Assembly: GCF_010686655.1 (NCBI RefSeq)
Contig: NZ_JAAGVY010000014.1
Coordinates: 1 to 64,000 of the forward strand
Length of the DNA: 64,000 nt
Source of the DNA: Cryomorpha ignava
Lineage (GTDB): Bacteria > Bacteroidota > Bacteroidia > Flavobacteriales_D > Cryomorphaceae
Direction of reading: 5' to 3'
Shown here: positions 2,477 to 57,674 of the stretch, piece by piece
How the letters are laid out: every line of letters starts with the position of its first letter
Position numbering within the stretch: the stretch's first letter is position 1
Notes under the pieces: model-generated
The model's database searches: none
The model's input: only the letters and a program-made list of their open reading frames with translations
What the model was told of the DNA's origin: nothing
Program-made: the position numbers and the translations under genes

Positions 2477-3190
2477 ATGAATTTTTTAAAAAGATTATTT
2501 AAAATAGGACAAGCCGAAACACATTCGGCAATAGATAAATTGGAAGATCCAATTAAACTTACAGAGCAAGGTATTCGCGATATGAAGGAAAATCTTTCTA
2601 AGAGCTTGCAGGCTTTAGCAGAAGTTAAAGCAATGGCTATTCGCGCCAGAAACGATAATGAAACTTATACTGATAATGCAACGGACTATCAGGAAAAAGC
2701 AATGCTTTTGCTTCAACGCGCTGAAAAAGGAGAGCTTGAAGGTGCAGAAGCAGATCGCCTGGCAACTGAAGCTTTGATGAAAAAAGCAGAAAACTCGAAA
2801 ATGGCAGAGACTTCACTTACTGAAAAAGATAGATTTGAAAAGTCGGTTGTGCAACTTGAAGGAAATGTAAAGACCATTAAAACCAATATTGGCAAATGGG
2901 AAGCTGAATTAAAAACGCTGAAAGCACGCGTAAAAGTGAGCAACGCAACAAAGAGTTTAAACAAGCAATTGGCTCAAATTGACTCTACCGATACGGTTTC
3001 TTTGCTTGAGCGCATGAAAGAAAAGGTAGCTCAGGAAGAAGCTTTGGCAGAATCTTACGGCGAAATTGCAAATGAAAGCAGAAGTATTGATGAAGATATC
3101 GACAAAGCGCTTGAAGGAAGCGTGGCCAGTAAAGCTCAAGATGAATTGGCAGATTTGAAAGCAAAAATGTCAAAAGGGAAGTTAAATTAG
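2477..3190 (+). CDS. PspA/IM30 (phage-shock protein A / Vipp1) family protein
   Basis: 237 aa, all alpha-helical coiled coil. The N-terminus MNFLKRLFKIGQAETHSAIDKLEDPIKLTEQGIRDMKENL is typical of PspA/IM30. Confidence 0.8.
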   Translation: MNFLKRLFKIGQAETHSAIDKLEDPIKLTEQGIRDMKENLSKSLQALAEVKAMAIRARNDNETYTDNATDYQEKAMLLLQRAEKGELEGAEADRLATEALMKKAENSKMAETSLTEKDRFEKSVVQLEGNVKTIKTNIGKWEAELKTLKARVKVSNATKSLNKQLAQIDSTDTVSLLERMKEKVAQEEALAESYGEIANESRSIDEDIDKALEGSVASKAQDELADLKAKMSKGKLN

Positions 3191-3229
3191 AATGAGCTTA
3201 GAAAAAGGTAATCTTAATTATAAAAAAGC

Positions 3230-3877
3230 ATGATAGAATTATTCCATGCTACCTTTTCGCCTGTGAATATCATTCCGGCCATTATACTCACTTTCGTGGT
3301 GTGCTATTGGTTACTGATCATTTTCGGTGCCTTGGATATTAATTCCTTTGATGTTGAGGTTGATCTTGATGCCGATATGGACATTGATGCCGATGGTGGC
3401 ACGTCAGAATTTTCGGTTTCGTGGTTAAACAACGTTTTGTCATTCTTCAATATCGACAAGATTCCATTGATGATTTTTCTGACTTTCACAGCCATTCCGC
3501 TTTGGGCAATAGCAGTAATGGTCAATCATATACTGGGTAACGAATCGTTTTTGCTATCGCTGCTTTTCCTTATTCCAGAGTTTATTCTCAGCGTTTTAAT
3601 CGCAAAGCCGTTGACCATTCCGTTTGTGAAAATATTTAGCAAACTGAATGAACCGACTGAACAAAATGCAAATTTACTTGGGAAAATGGGCAAAGTGGTT
3701 ATTAGTGCATCAGATTTGAAAATGGGACAAGCTGATGTGAATATCGATGGATCGAGCTATCGCTTGAACATCAAAACAAAAAATGGAAAAATAATGCGTG
3801 GCGAAAGTTTGCTTATCGTCAATTTCTCAGAGCTGGACAAATGCTACATAGTTGAGCCTTATGAATCAATCAATTAA
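3230..3877 (+). CDS. NfeD-like / YqiJ-family inner-membrane protein (OB-fold C-terminus)
   Basis: N-terminal TM helices, an acidic DVEVDLDADMDIDADGG stretch, more TM segments, and a C-terminal beta-rich segment (GKMGKVVISASDLKMGQADVNIDGSSYRLNIKTKNGKIMRGESLLIV). It lies immediately upstream of the flotillin gene, as in yqiJ-yqiK. Confidence 0.6.
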   Translation: MIELFHATFSPVNIIPAIILTFVVCYWLLIIFGALDINSFDVEVDLDADMDIDADGGTSEFSVSWLNNVLSFFNIDKIPLMIFLTFTAIPLWAIAVMVNHILGNESFLLSLLFLIPEFILSVLIAKPLTIPFVKIFSKLNEPTEQNANLLGKMGKVVISASDLKMGQADVNIDGSSYRLNIKTKNGKIMRGESLLIVNFSELDKCYIVEPYESIN

Positions 3878-3887
3878 AAAATAAAAA

Positions 3888-6029
3888 ATGGAAATGTTAG
3901 GTAATATCGGCTTCGGGATAGTCATCTTAGTCGTAATAGTCATCATCGGAATTATCGTGATGATTTCAAGATGGTACAAAAAAGCATCGCAAGGACAAGC
4001 GATTGTGAGAACCGGGGTGGGTGGAACAAGAGTTTCCTTCAATGGAATTTTAATCGTTCCCGTTTTGCACCGAATGGAAACAATGGATATTTCATTAAAA
4101 GCCATTCAAATCGAAAGAGCCGGTGCGGCAGGATTGGTTTGTAGAGATAACATCAGAGCCGACATCAAGGTTGCGTTCTTCATCCGTGTAAACAAAACGC
4201 TTGAAGATGTAATTCAGGTGGCGCAATCTGTAGGCTGTATTCGTTCGTCAGATCCCGCAGCACTAAACGATCTTTTTGACGCAAAATTTTCGGAAGCGCT
4301 TAAAACCATTGGTAAGAAGTTCGATTTTGTTGACTTGTACAATAAACGCGACGAATTTAGAGAAGAGATCGTCAATATTATCGGTACCGATTTGAATGGT
4401 TTCATTCTCGACGATGCCGCGATTGACTATTTGGAACAAACGCCGCTTTCGCAAATGGATGAAAGTAATATTCTCGACGCGGAAGGTATCAAGAAGATTA
4501 TCAGCATTACGTCGCGAGAGAAAATTCAGTCGAACCAAATTGAGAGAGACAGACAAAAAACAATTAGAAAGCAAGATGTTGAAGCGCAAGAAGCCATTCT
4601 GGAGCTCGACAAACAACTTGCAGAGAAGGAAGAAAAGCAAAAACGGGAAATTGCGAATATAAAATCGCGCGAAGAAGCCGAGATTGCTAAAGTACAGCAA
4701 GAAGAGACTCTGAAATCGGAAAGATCGCGCATTATAACCGAAGAAGAAATTCAAATTTCGGAACAGAATAAAGAGCGTGAAATAATTGTAGCATCAAAGA
4801 ATAAAGAAAGAACTTCCGCTGTTGAAACAGAGAGAATTGAGAAGGACAGATTGCTGGAAGTTACCGAGAGAGAGCGTATTGTAACGCTGGCGCAGATTGC
4901 GAAAGAGAAAGCAATTGAAACCCAGAAGCGTGATATTCAGGAAGTCATTCGGGAGCGTGTGGCGATTGAAAAAACGGTGGTTGATGAAGAAGAAAACATC
5001 AAGGACACTCGTGCAAGAGCTCTGGCCAATCGCGAGAAATTAGTCGCTGTCACCAAAGCGGAAGAATCTGCGGAAGCGGCACTTGTAGAGAAAATTAAAG
5101 CAGCTGAAGCAGCCAACCAGGCGGCAGAATTTACGGCAAAGCAAGTCATTATTGAAGCTCAGGCCGAAGAAGAATCTTCCATAAAGCGTGCAGCAGCCAT
5201 GAAAACCATGGCCGATGCCGAAGCGGCCAGGGAAGCAGCTCACGGAATAGCCGAAGCACAAGTAATGGAAGCGAAAGCCACTGCAAGACAGAAAGAAGGA
5301 GATGCGGAAGCCGCAGTAATTGAAGCACGCGCTATGGCTGAAGCCAAAGAAATTCAAGCGAAACAACATGCACGAGCCATTTCCGATTTGGAAATAGGTA
5401 AAGCCGAAGCTGAAGTAATCGAAGCAAAAGCGGTAGCCGAACAGAAAAAAGGACTTGCAGAAGCTGTGGTGAGCAAAGAGAAGTACGATGTGGAGGCAGA
5501 AGGAATTCACAAGAAAGCCGATGCCATGAAAAAATTGGACGGCGTTGGAAAAGATCACGAAGAATTCAAGTTGCGATTGGATAAAGAGAAATCGGTTGAA
5601 TTGGCTCAAATCAGCATCCAGAAAGATATAGCAGATGCTCAGGCCGAAGTTATTTCGAATGCGTTGAAAACTGCAAAAATCGATATTGTTGGTGGTGAAG
5701 CTGTATTCTTTGATAAGATTATTAGCGCCATTTCAAATGGAAAATCGGTGGAGCGTATGATTGACAACAGCGGTACTTTGGGTCAATTGAAAACCCAATT
5801 GCTTGATGGTATCGATGGCTCTACATTGAAAGAGAAGATTGGAAGTTTGGTAGATCAGTTTGGAATTTCATCTGACGATTTGAAGAACCTTTCGGTAAGC
5901 GCATTGATTTTTAAAATGATGCAAGAGAATAGCGATGATAAGCAGCAAGGGGTTTTAAACTCGTTGCTTTCGGCGGCGAAGGCCGCGGGAATTGGTGAAA
6001 AGACGCCGCATAGTTTGGGGATTAAGTAA
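3888..6029 (+). CDS. Flotillin-family (SPFH/band-7) protein, YqiK-like, with long E/A/K-rich coiled-coil tail
   Basis: N-terminal TM segment, then an SPFH core (QAIVRTGVGGTRVSFNGILIVPVLHRMETMDISLKAIQIERAGAAGLVCRDNIRADIKVAFFIRV). This is followed by ~400 aa of EA-rich heptad repeats. Confidence 0.85.
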   Translation: MEMLGNIGFGIVILVVIVIIGIIVMISRWYKKASQGQAIVRTGVGGTRVSFNGILIVPVLHRMETMDISLKAIQIERAGAAGLVCRDNIRADIKVAFFIRVNKTLEDVIQVAQSVGCIRSSDPAALNDLFDAKFSEALKTIGKKFDFVDLYNKRDEFREEIVNIIGTDLNGFILDDAAIDYLEQTPLSQMDESNILDAEGIKKIISITSREKIQSNQIERDRQKTIRKQDVEAQEAILELDKQLAEKEEKQKREIANIKSREEAEIAKVQQEETLKSERSRIITEEEIQISEQNKEREIIVASKNKERTSAVETERIEKDRLLEVTERERIVTLAQIAKEKAIETQKRDIQEVIRERVAIEKTVVDEEENIKDTRARALANREKLVAVTKAEESAEAALVEKIKAAEAANQAAEFTAKQVIIEAQAEEESSIKRAAAMKTMADAEAAREAAHGIAEAQVMEAKATARQKEGDAEAAVIEARAMAEAKEIQAKQHARAISDLEIGKAEAEVIEAKAVAEQKKGLAEAVVSKEKYDVEAEGIHKKADAMKKLDGVGKDHEEFKLRLDKEKSVELAQISIQKDIADAQAEVISNALKTAKIDIVGGEAVFFDKIISAISNGKSVERMIDNSGTLGQLKTQLLDGIDGSTLKEKIGSLVDQFGISSDDLKNLSVSALIFKMMQENSDDKQQGVLNSLLSAAKAAGIGEKTPHSLGIK

Positions 6030-6178
6030 TGTCTGTCCAGAAAGCCCGCTATCGGCGTTGCACTTGAATTGAAAACAGTCATTGACAAATGTCAACTCCT
6101 TGCTTTTCAATTCTGCGTGCGCCTTGCTATCGAACTTTCTGACTCAGACATTTGAGTGCGTTGACATACCCAGAAATT
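6028..6178. mobile_element. MITE-like element, copy 1 (5' terminus aatgtctgtcc...; 3' end degenerate)
   Basis: About 150 bp that align with 56702-56928 over both arms. It contains the internal hairpin attgacaaatgtcaa. It starts at or overlapping the TAA stop of the flotillin gene. Confidence 0.6.
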
Positions 6179-6289
6179 AGACTGTAGTGAGTAAGTTATT
6201 TAAGGTAAAGTGTTTCAAATTTCGGAATACTTTACCCTTTATTATTCGGATTAGAATTCGTGAAAATCAATATTTAGTGAACTAAACAA

Positions 6290-9200
6290 ATGCAAGAAGA
6301 GCAAGAAAATACAGAAGAGCCGGGCACCGTTTTAGAGCAGGGAACTTACGAGATCATCAAAGATCGACTGTTAAAGCAGGGCGATATTTTACGTTCGAAG
6401 CTGGATAAGCTCAACGAAGCCAGAAAAGATGTGTTTGGTGCTATTGAAACGACTTTGCTCACCACAGAGCGCATTACCACAGAAAACAATTGTGTACCAC
6501 GGGACATGGTTGCGATAGCCGATAATTTCATTTTTGGCTATAACGTTTTTATGGGCTTGAAATCGGTTACGCTTTTAACGGATGTTTTTAACATTTATGA
6601 ATATAAAGACCGGAGTTTTATTAAGAAGGACTTGGAGCTGATTAACAACCAGTCTTTTATTCGCGACTTTGAAAATCTATACAAATACTATAAGCAAACA
6701 CAGTTTGCAAAGTTCGCTGTAACCGGCCCGTTTCTCTACATTATTTTTAAAATTGGTGACAACGAAACCGACATCAAAGTTTTTAAATGGCAGATTGATG
6801 GCAATGCTTTAATTTATTCGGAAGATAGGGCTGCGAATGAATTTAGTTTTCCCGATCAGCAGCAGTTTCGATGGAAGAAAACGACGCGCGATATGTTTCG
6901 TGACGGGCTACACCCGCATATTTCTATTGAAGATCAAATTTTCGTAGAAACCGTTGGCGGCGATTTGACTATTAAAATAGAAGACAATACTGAAGATGGG
7001 AAGGGGATTTTTAACGAGCCGGTTGAATACAAAGACCAGGTGCTGCACGATGCTGAAATTCTTTACTCTATCGTTGGAAATTTGATTTTTCTGAAGATCA
7101 AACCTTATAAGGAAAACACGTTTCGGTACATTATATACAACAAGAAAATTCAGCAGGCTATGCGTGTTGATGATATTGAGAATGCGTGCGTTTTGCTGCC
7201 CGAAGACTATGGTGTGATTTTCCCGAAAGGATATTATTTACAAACCGGCGAATCCAAAATATTCAATACCGATTTGAATTCGATGCTTTACGAAAAGACC
7301 ATTGAATCGCCCAACGGAGAAGATTTTCTATATATTTTTTACAATAGAAAATCGGGAACTTACATTTTGCTTTCGTATAATTTAATTTCGCAAACTGTTG
7401 CCAACCCTGTTATTTGCCACGGCTATTCCATTTTCGGCAGTGGCGAGATGTGCTATTTTAAGGGCGAAAATGAAGCTCAGAAACATCATGCTATTCAGAT
7501 TTGGCAAACACCTTATTTATTAGATGTTGCCGACTTTGTTGGAAAAGAAGATTCCTTTTTATCCAAAATTGGAAATAAGGACATTGTGAAGGGAATGGCG
7601 GAGAGTAATGAAGTGCTAAGCCTGATACATAAAAAGGACTCTTACGCCAATCTTTACATCGATATTGTAAGGAAAGTAACGGGTATTGTCGATTCGTTTT
7701 ATTGGCTTGATAAAAAGGAAGCGTTTAATTTGAGTGCTACGCTTGCTGAAATCAGAACCGTTGCAGATTCTGCCATTAATGAGTTTGAGAAAGTCATTAA
7801 AATCAAGAAGAATACGCAAGAAGAATTTAAACGTGTAGAAGTGGAGGTTACCGCTTTGATGCGCGCGTTGAAAATTGCGAAATTCAAGGATATTGATGAA
7901 TTTGTGAAGCTCTTGGCTGAAATTAGAAACATTCGCGGACAGGTAATGAGCCTGACCGATTTGCGCTATATAAACGAAGCGGCCATTGAGAATTACGAAG
8001 AAAAGCTAAAGGCCGAAAATGAGAAGCTCTCGCAGAAATGCGTCAAGTTTTTGTTGAAAAAGGAAGCTTTATCTTATTATGAAACCAAGGTGAAAGAGCT
8101 AAGCGATTCTGTTCATAAACTCACCAAAGTAGTTGAAGCCAATGAGCTGGAAGAAGATGTATTGAAAACATCGAAAGAGCTTGAAATGCTGATTGAGATT
8201 GTGAGTAATCTCAAGATCGAAGATGCGACCCAAACTACTACTATAATCAATAATATTTCAGAAATATACGCTTCGTTCAATCAAATAAATGCCGCACTTA
8301 AAAGAAAGCGAAAAGAGCTGTTTTTGGTGGAAGGCGAAGCCGAATTTCATTCCCAGTTAAAACTAATCAGCCAGGGAATCATCAATTATCTCGACATTTC
8401 TGATACTACAGAAAAGTGTGAAGAATATTTAACCAAGCTGATGATTCAGCTGGAAGAGCTTGAAGGCAAATTCAGTGAATTTGATGAATTTTTAGATAAG
8501 ATAAGCGAGAAGCGCACAGAAGTTTACAATGCCTTTGAAGCGAGAAAAGTGCAGCTCATTGAGAAGAAAAACAAGCGTACTTCTGCCTTGCAGGCTTCTG
8601 CCGATAGAATTTTGGCAGGAGTGAAGCATAGGCTGGAAGGAATGGAAAATATGGATGCCATTAATGGATACATGGCGTCTGACCTGATGGTAGATAAGTT
8701 GCGAAATATTGTTCAGGAATTGATTGGCCTTGGCGATACCGTGAAGGCAGATGAAGTGCAAGGAAAGCTAAAGTCAACACAAGAAGATGCCATTAGACAG
8801 CTTAAAGACAAGACTGATCTTTACGATGGCGAAAACCTTATTTCTTTCGGAAAGCACAAATTTTCGGTCAATAATCAATTGCTCGACCTTACGATTGTGC
8901 CGCGAAGTAATGCCATGTTTTACCACGTAACCGGAACCAACTTTTTTGAAGAGATTAAAGATCCGAAGTTCCTGGCTACCCGTGAAGTCTGGGATCAAGA
9001 GTTGATTTCTGAAAATAATACAGTGTATCGATCAGAATATTTGGCCTTATTACTTTTTAATGCCATTTCAAATTCAAAAAACTTTACGCTAAAAGATGCT
9101 GCACGCTGGCCAGATGAGCGGATGGAAAGTTTCATTGCTGAATTCGTTGCTCCGCGCTATGACGAAGGCTACAGCAAGGGCGTTCACGATGAAGACGCAG

Positions 9201-11182
9201 CTCTTATTTTGTGGGAACTCTTAGACATGACCACCAAAGGCGGCGTGTTGAAATACGATCCAAAAGCCAGAGTAGGAGCTATCTATTTCTGGAATTTATA
9301 CTTGAACAAAGAAAAAAGACAAAGCTTAAACAGCGAAATAAAGGGCGCCGGAATAATCCTGAAAGCTTTTCCAAATTCGAATGCGTTTAGCGACTTGATT
9401 GGAAAAATTGAAAGCTTAATGATTGACTTTTCAAATCAGCAATCTGTTTTCCTTCAGGAGAATGTAAAAGATGCAGCCAGTTATTTATTTGCCGAATTAG
9501 CTGACAACGGCATTTTTAGCGTTAGCAAAGGCGCAAGCGATTTTAAAACCGAATTTCAAAAGAACTTAAAAGAGAACAAGCAGGAGAAAAACTATCAGGA
9601 TTCGATTGATTCCATAGATTCTCCAGAAGGGAAATTTACGCTGATAAGAAGTTGGTTGCTCGCTTTCGCGGAAACGCAAACAGGTAATTTTGACACAATT
9701 ATTGATGAAACAGCTCTTGTTTTGGCCGAAAGCGATCAGGAATTCAAATTGGTTGATGCGTCACTAAACGTTTCTATCGAAGGCATTCAAGGTGAGCACT
9801 CCAGAATTGCTAATGGCGAATTAATCGTTGATTACCATAATTATAATAATCGATTAAGAAATTTTCATGCTAAAACAGTACCAGCTTTTCAGCAATTTAA
9901 GGAATTGAAAAAAGAATTAATTGATACTTATCGTGAAGAGCTGAAGCTAAATGAGTTGAAGCCGCGAGTGATGAACTCTTTTGTACGCAATGAATTGATC
10001 AATAAGGTTTATCTGCCAATGATTGGCGATAACCTGGCAAAGCAAATAGGAACGGCCGATGCCAATAAGCGAACAGATTTGATGGGTATGCTGCTACTGA
10101 TTTCTCCGCCGGGATATGGTAAAACCACGCTGATGGAATATATTGCCAGCAGGCTGGGTGTGATTTTTCTGAAAATTAACGGCCCGGCAATTGGGCATGA
10201 AGTTACATCGCTCGACCCAACAGATGCGCCCAACGCGGGAGCGCGAGAAGAAATTGAAAAGCTGAATCTCGGTTTGGAAATGGGCGATAATGTGATGATT
10301 TATCTCGATGATATTCAGCATTGCAACCCCGAGTTTCTACAGAAGTTTATCTCCCTTTGCGATGCCCAGCGAAAGATAGAAGGCGTTTACAAAGGAAAGA
10401 GCAAGACCTATGACTTGCGCGGAAAGAAAGTCTCGGTAGTAATGGCCGGAAATCCATATACCGAAAGCGGCGACAAATTCAAGATTCCGGATATGCTTGC
10501 CAATAGAGCCGACATTTACAATCTGGGCGATATTCTGGGCGGAAACAAACGGGCTTTCGAATTGAGCTATATTGAAAACAGTTTGACATCGAATTCCACT
10601 TTGCGCAAACTGTCCGGAAAGAGCCAGCAAGATCTCTACACATTTATTCAGATCGCCGAAACCGGCGAGAGTGAAGGACTTGATTTTGAGTCAAACCACT
10701 CTGCCGAAGACATTGCTGATTATGTGAACACTTTAAAGAAGCTCATTCAAATTAGGGATGTCGTTTTAAAAGTAAATCAACAATACATTCAGTCGGCAGC
10801 GATGGAAGAGCAATACCGTATGGAGCCTTCGTTTAAGTTGCAGGGCTCGTACCGAAATATGAATAAAATGGCCGAGAGAGTCGTACCGATAATGAATGAA
10901 GATGAGCTGAAAACGCTCATCATGAACAACTACGAAAACGAATCTCAAACATTGACAACCAGCGCCGAGGCAAACTTATTAAAATTCAAATCGCTTATGG
11001 ATTGGCAAACACCAGAAGAAGAAAAACGCTGGCAAGAGTTGATTGCTATTTTTCTGAAAAATCAGAAGATGAAGGGTTTTGGGGGTGATAATCAGATTGG
11101 TTTGATTTTGAATCAGATGGAGGCGCTTTCGGAGGGGCTGTTTGGTATTAAGAATGTGCTGGCTAAGGGGAAGGGGGAGTGA
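6290..11182 (+). CDS. Giant (1630 aa) multidomain protein: N-terminal beta-rich region, ~450-aa coiled-coil, C-terminal AAA_5/MoxR-like AAA+ ATPase domain
   Basis: Uninterrupted ORF. Walker A LLISPPGYGKTT, Walker B VMIYLDDIQH and sensor-1-like VVMAGNPY sit in the last ~350 aa. The central region is heptad-rich and K/E-rich. No match to a named family could be made by eye. Confidence 0.8.
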   Translation: MQEEQENTEEPGTVLEQGTYEIIKDRLLKQGDILRSKLDKLNEARKDVFGAIETTLLTTERITTENNCVPRDMVAIADNFIFGYNVFMGLKSVTLLTDVFNIYEYKDRSFIKKDLELINNQSFIRDFENLYKYYKQTQFAKFAVTGPFLYIIFKIGDNETDIKVFKWQIDGNALIYSEDRAANEFSFPDQQQFRWKKTTRDMFRDGLHPHISIEDQIFVETVGGDLTIKIEDNTEDGKGIFNEPVEYKDQVLHDAEILYSIVGNLIFLKIKPYKENTFRYIIYNKKIQQAMRVDDIENACVLLPEDYGVIFPKGYYLQTGESKIFNTDLNSMLYEKTIESPNGEDFLYIFYNRKSGTYILLSYNLISQTVANPVICHGYSIFGSGEMCYFKGENEAQKHHAIQIWQTPYLLDVADFVGKEDSFLSKIGNKDIVKGMAESNEVLSLIHKKDSYANLYIDIVRKVTGIVDSFYWLDKKEAFNLSATLAEIRTVADSAINEFEKVIKIKKNTQEEFKRVEVEVTALMRALKIAKFKDIDEFVKLLAEIRNIRGQVMSLTDLRYINEAAIENYEEKLKAENEKLSQKCVKFLLKKEALSYYETKVKELSDSVHKLTKVVEANELEEDVLKTSKELEMLIEIVSNLKIEDATQTTTIINNISEIYASFNQINAALKRKRKELFLVEGEAEFHSQLKLISQGIINYLDISDTTEKCEEYLTKLMIQLEELEGKFSEFDEFLDKISEKRTEVYNAFEARKVQLIEKKNKRTSALQASADRILAGVKHRLEGMENMDAINGYMASDLMVDKLRNIVQELIGLGDTVKADEVQGKLKSTQEDAIRQLKDKTDLYDGENLISFGKHKFSVNNQLLDLTIVPRSNAMFYHVTGTNFFEEIKDPKFLATREVWDQELISENNTVYRSEYLALLLFNAISNSKNFTLKDAARWPDERMESFIAEFVAPRYDEGYSKGVHDEDAALILWELLDMTTKGGVLKYDPKARVGAIYFWNLYLNKEKRQSLNSEIKGAGIILKAFPNSNAFSDLIGKIESLMIDFSNQQSVFLQENVKDAASYLFAELADNGIFSVSKGASDFKTEFQKNLKENKQEKNYQDSIDSIDSPEGKFTLIRSWLLAFAETQTGNFDTIIDETALVLAESDQEFKLVDASLNVSIEGIQGEHSRIANGELIVDYHNYNNRLRNFHAKTVPAFQQFKELKKELIDTYREELKLNELKPRVMNSFVRNELINKVYLPMIGDNLAKQIGTADANKRTDLMGMLLLISPPGYGKTTLMEYIASRLGVIFLKINGPAIGHEVTSLDPTDAPNAGAREEIEKLNLGLEMGDNVMIYLDDIQHCNPEFLQKFISLCDAQRKIEGVYKGKSKTYDLRGKKVSVVMAGNPYTESGDKFKIPDMLANRADIYNLGDILGGNKRAFELSYIENSLTSNSTLRKLSGKSQQDLYTFIQIAETGESEGLDFESNHSAEDIADYVNTLKKLIQIRDVVLKVNQQYIQSAAMEEQYRMEPSFKLQGSYRNMNKMAERVVPIMNEDELKTLIMNNYENESQTLTTSAEANLLKFKSLMDWQTPEEEKRWQELIAIFLKNQKMKGFGGDNQIGLILNQMEALSEGLFGIKNVLAKGKGE

Positions 11183-56551: not shown

Positions 56552-56701
56552 ATTTCGTAAGTTTAACTGGTTTTATTATTACAAAATTCATTAGGTTTTT
56601 GTTTTGAGATAAGATGAAGTTCTTGTTAGTTTAGGATTTAGGATTTAGGATTTCAGATTGGAGCGCACGATGTAATGGAATGATTCAAAAAATTAAACTA
56701 T

Positions 56702-56928
56702 TTAGTGTCTGTCCATAAAGTCCGCTATCTGCGTTGCACTTCATTTGCAAACAGTCTTTTCGACTCATCTCGACTCATCTCGACTCCGCTCTATGACCAC
56801 CGCTCGATAACCACCGCTCAAGGCATCGCACTGACAAATGTCAACTCCTTGATTTCTAATTCTACGTGCGCCTTTCTATCAAACATTCTGACCGAGACAC
56901 TAGAGTGTATTGACAGACACTAATTTAG
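56702..56928. mobile_element. MITE-like element, copy 2 (perfect terminal inverted repeats ttagtgtctgtc / gacagacactaa)
   Basis: A 12-bp perfect terminal inverted repeat. It aligns with 6028-6178 across both arms. It carries an extra internal block with 3 x tcgactcatc tandem units and a ttgacaaatgtcaa hairpin. Confidence 0.65.
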
Positions 56929-57003
56929 AGATTACGAAGCAATACAATATATATCGTTTGTATATATAAGTACTATTTTATATCTTCGCGAAATAAATAA
57001 TAT

Positions 57004-57141
57004 AGGGTTACCCCTTTAGATCGCGAAGCGTCTAAACCATTAATTATTAACGGAATACAAACCAAAGCCCTGAAAGGGCGACATAAATCTACGCGAGGTG
57101 CGATGAAAACTACATGTTTCGCGATCTAAGTGGGTAACCCT
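57004..57141. mobile_element. Second MITE/REP-like element: 24-bp imperfect terminal inverted repeats (agggttacccctttagatcgcgaa / ttcgcgatctaagtgggtaaccct) enclosing the IS200-end-like motif
   Basis: The terminal repeats match at 22 of 24 positions. The interior contains aaagccctgaaagggcgacataaatctacgcgag, which matches 226-256 and, inverted, 931-951. It is flanked by ataatat on both sides, which could be a target duplication. Confidence 0.6.
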
Positions 57142-57158
57142 AAAATAATATTTCATTT

Positions 57159-57386
57159 ATGGCATCGAAACAAATGGCATTCCGGTTTGACGAGGAATTA
57201 ATTAGACAAGTTAAGATCAAGGCGGAAGCAGAGCATAGAAGCTTGAACAATTATATAGAAGTATTGATGCTTAGAGATATTGGTAAGATTCCCAACGCAG
57301 AGACCAAAAAAGCAATTGACGAGGTAATGTCCGGAAAAGAACTGGAAGAGATAGATGACATTGACGAATTTATGGATTCTTTGTAA
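57159..57386 (+). CDS. dinJ: DinJ/RelB-family RHH antitoxin
   Basis: A 75-aa ribbon-helix-helix protein (AFRFDEELIRQVKIKAEAEHRSLNNYIEVLM). It lies 9 bp upstream of a YafQ-type toxin. Confidence 0.7.
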   Translation: MASKQMAFRFDEELIRQVKIKAEAEHRSLNNYIEVLMLRDIGKIPNAETKKAIDEVMSGKELEEIDDIDEFMDSL

Positions 57387-57395
57387 TGGTAGCTG

Positions 57396-57674
57396 ATGTA
57401 CAAACTTGTTATTTCAACAAAATTCAAAAAAGACCTTAAAAAGATTAAGAAAGATCCTCTTAATCACGCTTTAACGAGAGCCATTTTAAAAATCTTAAAA
57501 GAAAAAGGTGCTGTTGGCATTCCAGTGAATATGAAGCCACACCGACTGTCAGGAGGATACAAAAACAGCTGGGAATGCCATATCCGGCCAGATTTACTAA
57601 TTATTTGGTTTCAGATAGAAGACCCGCAAACTATTAAGCTCATTCGTATTGGATCACATTCGGATCTGTTTTAA
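57396..57674 (+). CDS. yafQ: YafQ-family type II toxin (RelE/ParE superfamily mRNA interferase)
   Basis: KFKKDLKKIKK...HRLSGGYKNSWECHIRPDLLIIWFQIEDPQTIKLIRIGSHSDLF. The C-terminal GSHSDLF and CHIxPD(W/L)LLI motifs are YafQ hallmarks. Confidence 0.8.
   Translation: MYKLVISTKFKKDLKKIKKDPLNHALTRAILKILKEKGAVGIPVNMKPHRLSGGYKNSWECHIRPDLLIIWFQIEDPQTIKLIRIGSHSDLF

Follow-up and report, generated by a model that had tools for sequence, protein, structure and literature searches.

The two related repeats in a 64,000-nt stretch of the Cryomorpha ignava genome (contig NZ_JAAGVY010000014.1, positions 1 to 64,000; hereafter the window) are members of an uncatalogued, hairpin-forming, MITE-like family of the Cryomorphaceae and Crocinitomicaceae, about 125-150 nt in length. 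On balance, we lean towards the view that this is an old, low-copy family of foldback repeats, MITE-like in origin, that now works as an ERIC-like, cis-acting RNA hairpin in 3' UTRs; we propose such a hairpin, and not a young jumping MITE, because the copies sit on stop codons and are conserved like coding DNA. Our literature search found no described Flavobacteriales or Brumimicrobium repeat or RNA motif like this one. Rfam 15 gave no match across the whole window at gathering score, and the matches obtained with E up to 10 in the surroundings of the two copies and of a canonical copy from Brumimicrobium glaciale (L007) were at chance level only; a tRNA/tmRNA scan of the window found none.

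That the two repeats are related, as a sequence-only reading of the window had claimed, is borne out well beyond chance: the window contains a 20-mer, TGACAAATGTCAACTCCTTG, and a 24-mer, TGTCTGTCCANAAAGNCCGCTATC, exactly two times each, where 0.01 and 0.00 occurrences would be expected, and the two copies align over their full length, except for an insert of about 75 nt in the second. A covariance-model search found no third copy in the 64-kb window. The same reading had itself named an outcome that would undo the family, namely that only these two copies exist as products of a segmental duplication. Further copies follow unrelated genes, and the family is therefore real; segmental duplication is rejected, the flanks of both window copies and of all other copies being unrelated genes.

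Copy 1 (6027-6171 on the plus strand, its end being approximate) consists of a canonical short form (6027-6153; covariance-model match of 134 bits, E about 1e-38) followed by a degraded outer 3' repeat (ttgacatacc at 6161-6170), as the sequence-only reading had said of its 3' terminus. Its apical hairpin, TTGAC-AAAT-GTCAA with the CTCCTTG flank, lies at 6082-6102 (plus strand), and the RNA folding called for earlier shows that it takes the family hairpin fold (-43.8 kcal/mol, z = -3.3). The first three bases of the copy (6027-6029, plus strand) are the TAA stop of a flotillin-family gene (3888-6029); the earlier reading had correctly put an element's 5' end there but had attributed this fusion to the second copy, whereas the copy on that stop is copy 1. 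The 713-aa product is 100% identical to the NCBI entry 'flotillin family protein [Cryomorpha ignava]', although, despite that name, it has no Pfam match at default thresholds. Between the flotillin-family gene and the DUF3686 gene that follows, the spacer measures 260 nt in the window versus 38-108 nt, element-free, at three related loci (L027, L028 and L030) with 79-86% protein identity and the same gene order; at one of them (L028) the C-terminus of the flotillin is identical (...HSLGIK*). Outside the repeat, 3' of copy 1, lies a terminator-like hairpin with a T-rich tail (6204-6236, plus strand). The gene string as a whole is conserved between the window (2477-11182) and these three loci: a PspA/IM30 protein (2477-3190), a protein of about 215 aa (3230-3877), the long flotillin-family protein (3888-6029) and a 1630-aa DUF3686/AAA ATPase (6290-11182), headed, according to the annotation in the relatives, by a CesT/YbjN-like protein. 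It looks like a membrane-stress or repair module.

Copy 2, the element originally flagged, spans 56702-56923 on the plus strand and differs in several ways: its family hairpin is broken by the insert and no gene is attached to it. Its left terminal repeat ttagtgtctgtc (TA followed by GTGTCTGTC; 56702-56713, plus strand) is the perfect complement of the right, outer repeat gacagacactaa (56912-56923, plus strand), confirming the perfect 12-bp terminal inverted repeats of the earlier description. Because this complement of the left repeat ends at 56923, the right end of the element is placed there, for a length of 222 nt, and the end first given, 56928, lies 5 nt too far out. The inverted-repeat arms extend to 21 nt (56702-56722 and 56903-56923) with 86% complementarity. 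This perfect 12-bp repeat, found in copy 2 alone among the family copies, pairs the left end with an outer duplicate located in about 22 nt of extra 3' sequence typical of Cryomorphaceae-type copies. Comparison of the 3' flanks shows that these 22 or so nucleotides, which come after an inner 3' partner (gaccgagacac, 56890-56900, plus strand), are a terminal duplication common to both window copies and to L001, L011 and L020. The inner partner is homologous to Brumimicrobium-type 3' ends, and the covariance-model match obtained in the window search (56703-56902; 68 bits, E about 1e-17) stops at 56902.

The insert of copy 2 (56757-56831, plus strand), absent from copy 1 by alignment, lies immediately 5' of the apical hairpin and ends in ...CTCAAGGCATCGCAC. 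TRF resolves it into two arrays, (TCGACTCATC) x2.7 at 56760-56786 and (CCGCTCGATAACCA) x2.4 at 56786-56819; the threefold tandem block noted from the sequence is thus real as the first array, was rightly said to be missing from copy 1, and is adjoined by a second. The insert has no match elsewhere in the DNA examined (the window and the retrieved loci); shorter inserts occur at the same site in L004 and L025 and have the motif CTCAnnGCA[T/C]CGC in common with it. A module of about 25 nt (ATTCGrnnrrCTCAnnGCATCGC) is seen at two alternative positions in different copies, the 3' arm in L009 and L026 and the position just 5' of the apical hairpin in copy 2, L004 and L025. Directly after the insert comes the conserved core TGACAAATGTCAACTCCTTG, that is, the apical hairpin with its 3' flank (56832-56851, plus strand), and the internal stem-loop TGACAAATGTCA recognised in the earlier reading is present in copies 1 and 2 alike. 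Folding the whole of copy 2 gives z = -2.75 without reproducing the inner stem of the family; its inner helices are missing because of the insert and of two mismatches in the helix below the apical module.

Copy 2 is set in a repeat-rich spacer upstream of a HicB-like/YafQ pair, and 388 nt separate it from the end of the closest preceding same-strand ORF of at least 80 aa. The two copies had been said to lie between convergent or tandem genes; copy 2 does not lie between convergent ones. With its 75-nt mini-tandem insert, weakened inner stem and missing upstream gene, copy 2 is most likely a decaying relic, its outer repeats nevertheless being perfect. The same spacer holds, just 5' of copy 2, a short tandem array, (TTTAGGA) x3.4, at 56630-56659. 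An unrelated long inverted repeat (56998-57147; 37-nt arms with 81% complementarity, 76 nt apart), whose arms include GGGTTACCCCTTTAGATCGCGAA and its complement, occurs once in the window, directly upstream of the HicB-like/YafQ toxin-antitoxin pair (57159-57674); its loop carries a terminator-like GCCCTTTCAGGGC on the minus strand (57079-57067).

The extent of the family was assessed by scanning genomes and metagenomes for exact matches to the shared 20-mer TGACAAATGTCAACTCCTTG, which forces every copy found in this way to carry it. Copies were retrieved from B. glaciale (three contigs), B. mesophilum, B. oceani, an uncultured Brumimicrobium, two Cryomorphaceae MAGs, one Bacteroidales MAG and twelve further metagenome contigs; viral contigs scanned with the same 20-mer gave no matches. 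Each genome scanned yielded one to three exact-core copies, and a 4.29-Mb contig (L011) a single one; the B. glaciale loci hold at least four full copies and a partial one. These per-genome numbers, which come from exact-match scans and from loci of 4-14 kb, are in single digits in the genomes sampled. Three matches were set aside as chance, two of them in apparent coding sequence (L003, L014) and one in a Desulfobacterales MAG (L006); in L006 and L014 the covariance-model search matches the core alone.

The covariance model, built from 15 trimmed copies, recovers copies without the exact 20-mer: the B. mesophilum lpdA copy (L032), where the apical loop changes from AAAT to AAAA with the stem kept (TTGAC-AAAA-GTCAA), a copy at L022 10007-10133 with the core CTGA-CAAAAA-TCAG, and partial copies adjoining the L008 and L019 loci. 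A second subfamily, at L005 3815-3941 (minus strand) and L010 1651-1776 (plus strand), follows the same hairpin plan with TTTAT-AAAT-ATAAA at its apex; its apical module is GCAATCATTTATAAATATAAAATCATGAA and its loop flanks are AATCA... and ...ATCATGA. The L005 copy starts on a stop codon (TAA), and a partial duplicate of the 3' arm lies about 160 nt downstream of the L010 copy. Tandem arrays of the element are also present, at L025 4628-5631 (at least five full copies and a truncated one) and L012 7005-7491, with a period of 186 nt (element plus a 36-nt spacer). Both sit after an ssb-like gene whose product ends in ...DDDLPF, and in their copies the apical hairpin is broken (AAATTCAAC) and ATTGACAA is duplicated by a 22-nt insert.

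The copies all fold, over their full length, into a single long, irregular hairpin, with short forms of 111-132 nt and, at the other extreme, the 222 nt of copy 2 with its insert, and no reading frame is common to them. The consensus hairpin of a 15-copy alignment contains 33 pairs, 16 of which have changed on both sides in a compensatory manner; standard pairs are formed in 94.3% of cells, versus 30-50% when the 3' partners are slid by one to three columns, and 500 column shuffles never attained the alignment's covariation score or its number of doubly changed pairs. Besides the helices, an internal loop is conserved with GCTATC on both strands, a direct and not an inverted repeat, together with a GGCG/CGCC helix and the apical module CAGTCA / TTGAC-AAAT-GTCAA / CTCCTTG. 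The termini are the most variable part (GTGTCTGTCC, GTTTGAATA, GTTTTTGTTT and others) and the apical core is the best kept, the opposite of what is expected of MITE ends bound by a transposase. The invariance of the core is in part an artefact, because the scans required the exact 20-mer; the apical hairpin is nonetheless kept by compensatory changes in copies that the 20-mer did not select (L005/L010 and L022).

At about 13 of 18 independent loci the element begins on the stop codon of an ORF of at least 128 aa on the same strand, the stop and its first three bases being one and the same; every stop-anchored copy is oriented the same way. The upstream genes include those for flotillin, queA, tyrS, an M42 peptidase, lpdA, an E2 acyltransferase, a thiolase, ssb and a TPR protein. 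The suggestion that the element may supply the stop codon is supported: its first base completes the upstream stop in most copies, and the stop is TAG at 5 of the 12 stop-anchored loci, which fits TA followed by the element's first G. Stop supply alone does not explain the uniform orientation, because either end of the palindrome could give TAG. At 7 of about 18 independent loci, clear intrinsic terminators follow 40-145 nt downstream; judging by position, copies that precede such a terminator, or the terminator-like hairpin after copy 1, would belong to the 3' UTR and be transcribed as part of it. The hairpin itself was considered as an intrinsic terminator and rejected: no T-run (U-tract) follows it, and the canonical terminators downstream are separate structures.

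Orthologous loci point to selection on the element. In five orthologous pairs its identity is 79-96%, comparable to the 82-93% of the upstream coding DNA (measurable in four pairs), whereas identity falls to 57-63% over the next 100 nt in four of the five. Coding-like identity against a diverged downstream flank indicates purifying selection and not the decay of an insertion, and the comparative sequence evidence thus indicates that selection preserves the surviving copies in the form of a long, irregular hairpin with two conserved internal loops. Even so, there have been gains and losses of the element: at the lpdA site it is present in B. glaciale (L007) and B. mesophilum (L032) and absent in L035. 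In L033 and L034 (2893-2962) the outer arms are kept (TCTGTATATAAAGTGCGCTATC ... GCTAGCGAACTTTCTATTTCAGAC) while the conserved centre is replaced by an unrelated short hairpin, CCACGAGATGAAATCTCGCGGTG; since the arms are retained without it, the core is not needed for whatever keeps them. In B. oceani (L031 2893-2950), right after the lpdA stop, stands a different palindrome, a GTAG...CTAC unit (GTAGGCAAGCCCTATTAGGGCATGCCTAC) within an AT-rich inverted repeat, and similar units occur near a convergent SprB-like gene in L031, L033 and L007. This palindrome looks REP-like, and the position after the stop seems to be a hot spot for hairpin elements.

How far, then, does the MITE label given by the sequence-only reading hold? 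Much of the description stands: these are small, non-coding repeats of less than about 300 bp, with terminal inverted repeats and no conserved ORF, dispersed in several (though few) copies per genome, with TA flanks and both filled and empty sites. TA is present at both ends in about 10 of 16 copies and the 3' flank is often TAA, as expected for entry into the TA of a TAA stop codon. Because TA is self-complementary, TA flanks alone may simply extend the stem and need not mark a target-site duplication, and sequence divergence at the empty sites (L028, L035) prevents a base-by-base alignment with filled ones. With most ends flanked by TA, a MITE-like origin is plausible. What does not stand is the picture of an active MITE of the usual type: conservation is lowest at the termini, copies are few, uniformly oriented and retained at genes, and no conserved termini common to the family and an autonomous IS were found in the window and the loci examined. 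Apart from the two copies, the window has no further occurrence of the terminal repeat, and the search for a transposase that the earlier reading proposed found none nearby, nor any with these ends in the loci examined. The label is therefore partly right, correct as to form and likely origin and wrong where it implies a young, transposase-driven family with conserved termini.

An ordinary selfish MITE would be a non-autonomous derivative of an IS630/Tc1-like, TA-targeting IS, mobilised in trans and devoid of host function, its placement on stop codons reflecting tolerated insertions. The perfect 12-bp repeats of copy 2, the TA on both ends of most copies, the sites left empty in relatives, the junk-like dynamics of inserts, terminal duplications and tandem arrays, and the precedent of RUP for IS630-type mobilisation at TA would all suit it. 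We judge it unlikely all the same, as the most conserved part is the centre and not the termini, copies persist at the same genes across species with compensatory changes and coding-like conservation, exact-core copies number only one to three per genome scanned, orientation to the upstream gene is uniform even though either end could supply TAG, and the window and the loci examined contain no transposase with these ends. No more credence goes to a structured RNA whose function would reside in the apical module (CAGUCA / UUGAC-AAAU-GUCAA / CUCCUUG), as a 3'-UTR-derived sRNA or a binding site for protein or RNA, with the long stem only presenting or stabilising it. The module and its flanks, including those not forced by the search, are near-invariant across genera in the main family, the hairpin is kept by compensatory changes in divergent copies, and both the two fixed G-U pairs described below and the uniform orientation fit a sense-strand RNA; yet the loop flanks differ in the second subfamily (AATCA... 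/ ...ATCATGA), the module is lost while the arms are kept in L033 and L034, the apical hairpin is broken in the L025 and L012 array copies, and the module has no Rfam relative and no known partner.

Whether the hairpin matters as RNA or as DNA is a question that the pairing itself addresses. Among the non-Watson-Crick pairs of 22 copies there are 50 G-U against 23 A-C, but 38 of the G-U come from two fixed columns, which leaves 12 against 23 in the variable arms; with G-U not above A-C in the variable pairs, the hairpin could just as well be kept as a DNA structure. A DNA-level element would be a single-stranded hairpin or cruciform for a recombinase or a HUH-type enzyme, in the manner of REP/RAYT, or else would offer TTGAC-N4-GTCAA as the site of a dimeric regulator; this motif would fit the TTGA-N6-TCAA form of CRP/FNR-type boxes. 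The lack of a G-U excess in the variable stems, the REP-type palindrome (GTAG...CTAC) at the identical post-stop position of lpdA in B. oceani and the GCTATC direct repeat on both arms all argue for this reading, which we hold to be more doubtful than either of the preceding two: a symmetric DNA site would not be expected to show strict one-way orientation or a seat on stop codons, no recombinase or RAYT-like gene lies nearby, and the GTAG/CTAC ends of REPs are missing. One-way orientation, the two fixed G-U pairs (which favour the plus strand) and stop-codon anchoring lead us to favour RNA over a DNA-level hairpin. Almost no weight is given to the idea that copy 2 encodes a 72-aa protein, even though an uninterrupted frame of 72 codons (56705-56923, GTG to TAA) coincides exactly with the element. 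The same frame stops after 12 codons in copy 1 and the product has no Pfam match, on which grounds the ORF is rejected as a gene; its frame relative to the core also differs among copies (for example L007 and copy 1), and it consists largely of the mini-tandem insert found in copy 2 only.

Proteobacteria have well-studied small hairpin repeats, among them ERIC, REP and Correia. The closest analogue of the present family is ERIC/IRU (RU-1) of the Enterobacteriaceae, likewise an imperfect palindrome of about 125 nt that forms a single long RNA hairpin and has TA at its ends; it is found in intergenic DNA that is transcribed or in 3' UTRs. ERIC is reportedly low in copy number in some hosts and retained at orthologous sites. 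Longer variants with inserts of some 70 bp at particular internal positions are also reported, which the insert of copy 2 resembles. The likeness is architectural only: no similarity to the 127-bp enterobacterial consensus is apparent, and the present family belongs to another phylum, the Bacteroidota; moreover, anchoring on the stop codon is much more regular here (about 13 of 18 loci) than in ERIC, and the conserved internal loop with its GCTATC direct repeat and the tandem arrays (L025) set the family apart. REP/REPIN sequences, extragenic palindromes found at the 3' ends of genes, form hairpins and are retained vertically for long periods, and a REP-like unit holds the same post-stop lpdA site in B. 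oceani; the present element is instead a single hairpin of about 125 nt, much longer than the 20-40 nt of a REP, with ends of the form TA|GTGTCTG..., has neither GTAG/CTAC ends nor the arrangement of a REP doublet, and shows no RAYT gene near it in the window. Integron attC sites were also considered and rejected, the ends being unlike RYYYAAC / GTTRRRY core sites and the copies following housekeeping genes (lpdA, tyrS, thiolase, ssb, queA) and not cassettes.

Bacterial MITEs are described as shorter than 200 bp, with terminal inverted repeats, TA ends and an RNA stem-loop formed by pairing of the 5' and 3' ends; ERIC is co-transcribed, and an orientation-dependent effect on mRNA stability involving the ribosome has been reported in Yersinia (PMC2229807). 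RUP of Streptococcus pneumoniae, with 108 copies and IS630-Spn1 as partner IS (PMC2229807), and Correia/NEMIS of Neisseria share with the present family a small non-coding body, terminal inverted repeats, TA flanks and a hairpin transcript. They differ in having around a hundred or more near-identical copies with conserved termini, as opposed to one to three exact-core copies with diverging termini here, and RUP has an identified partner IS where none is known for this family. Within the same phylum, the BrickBuilt MITE of Porphyromonas gingivalis carries an internal minisatellite, mostly a 23-nt tandem repeat, and is invariably located 49-591 nt from coding sequences (PMC4596501). Its internal tandem block recalls that of copy 2; in the present family, however, such a block arose by accident in a single copy, and copies usually sit on the stop codon.

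Under the 3'-UTR hairpin that we favour, an ancestor would have inserted at the TA of a stop codon, where TA and the element's first G would have recreated a stop (TAG) and left the protein unchanged. Transcribed as the start of the 3' UTR, the element would act in cis as a hairpin on the upstream mRNA, perhaps as a barrier to 3' exonucleases or as a processing site, and each ribosome that terminates on the stop codon within the element would open the base of the hairpin. To our knowledge, Bacteroidota lack Shine-Dalgarno-led initiation and RNA chaperones of the Hfq/ProQ type, and post-transcriptional control is less charted in this phylum. As a tentative extension, to which we assign a small chance, Bacteroidota might have in this family a new, stop-codon-anchored class of cis-regulatory RNA: a ribosome terminating on the stop codon in the base of the hairpin would melt it, the loops and the apical module would recruit a nuclease, a protein or an RNA, and translation of the upstream gene would thereby be linked to what becomes of that gene's mRNA, or to an sRNA being released from the 3' UTR, a once-mobile element having been domesticated repeatedly at housekeeping genes.

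Hairpin repeats as a kind of element are already known; this family, a new member, stands out by its unusually strict anchoring on stop codons and its good covariation support. For annotation, it follows that an element of this type can supply the last base of a stop codon, and the covariance model could serve to mask or annotate these repeats. For the biology of the family, the case allows selfish DNA, an mRNA stabiliser and a translation-coupled switch to be tested against one another, with natural variants at hand in relatives in the form of empty sites, a replaced core and a site taken by another palindrome.
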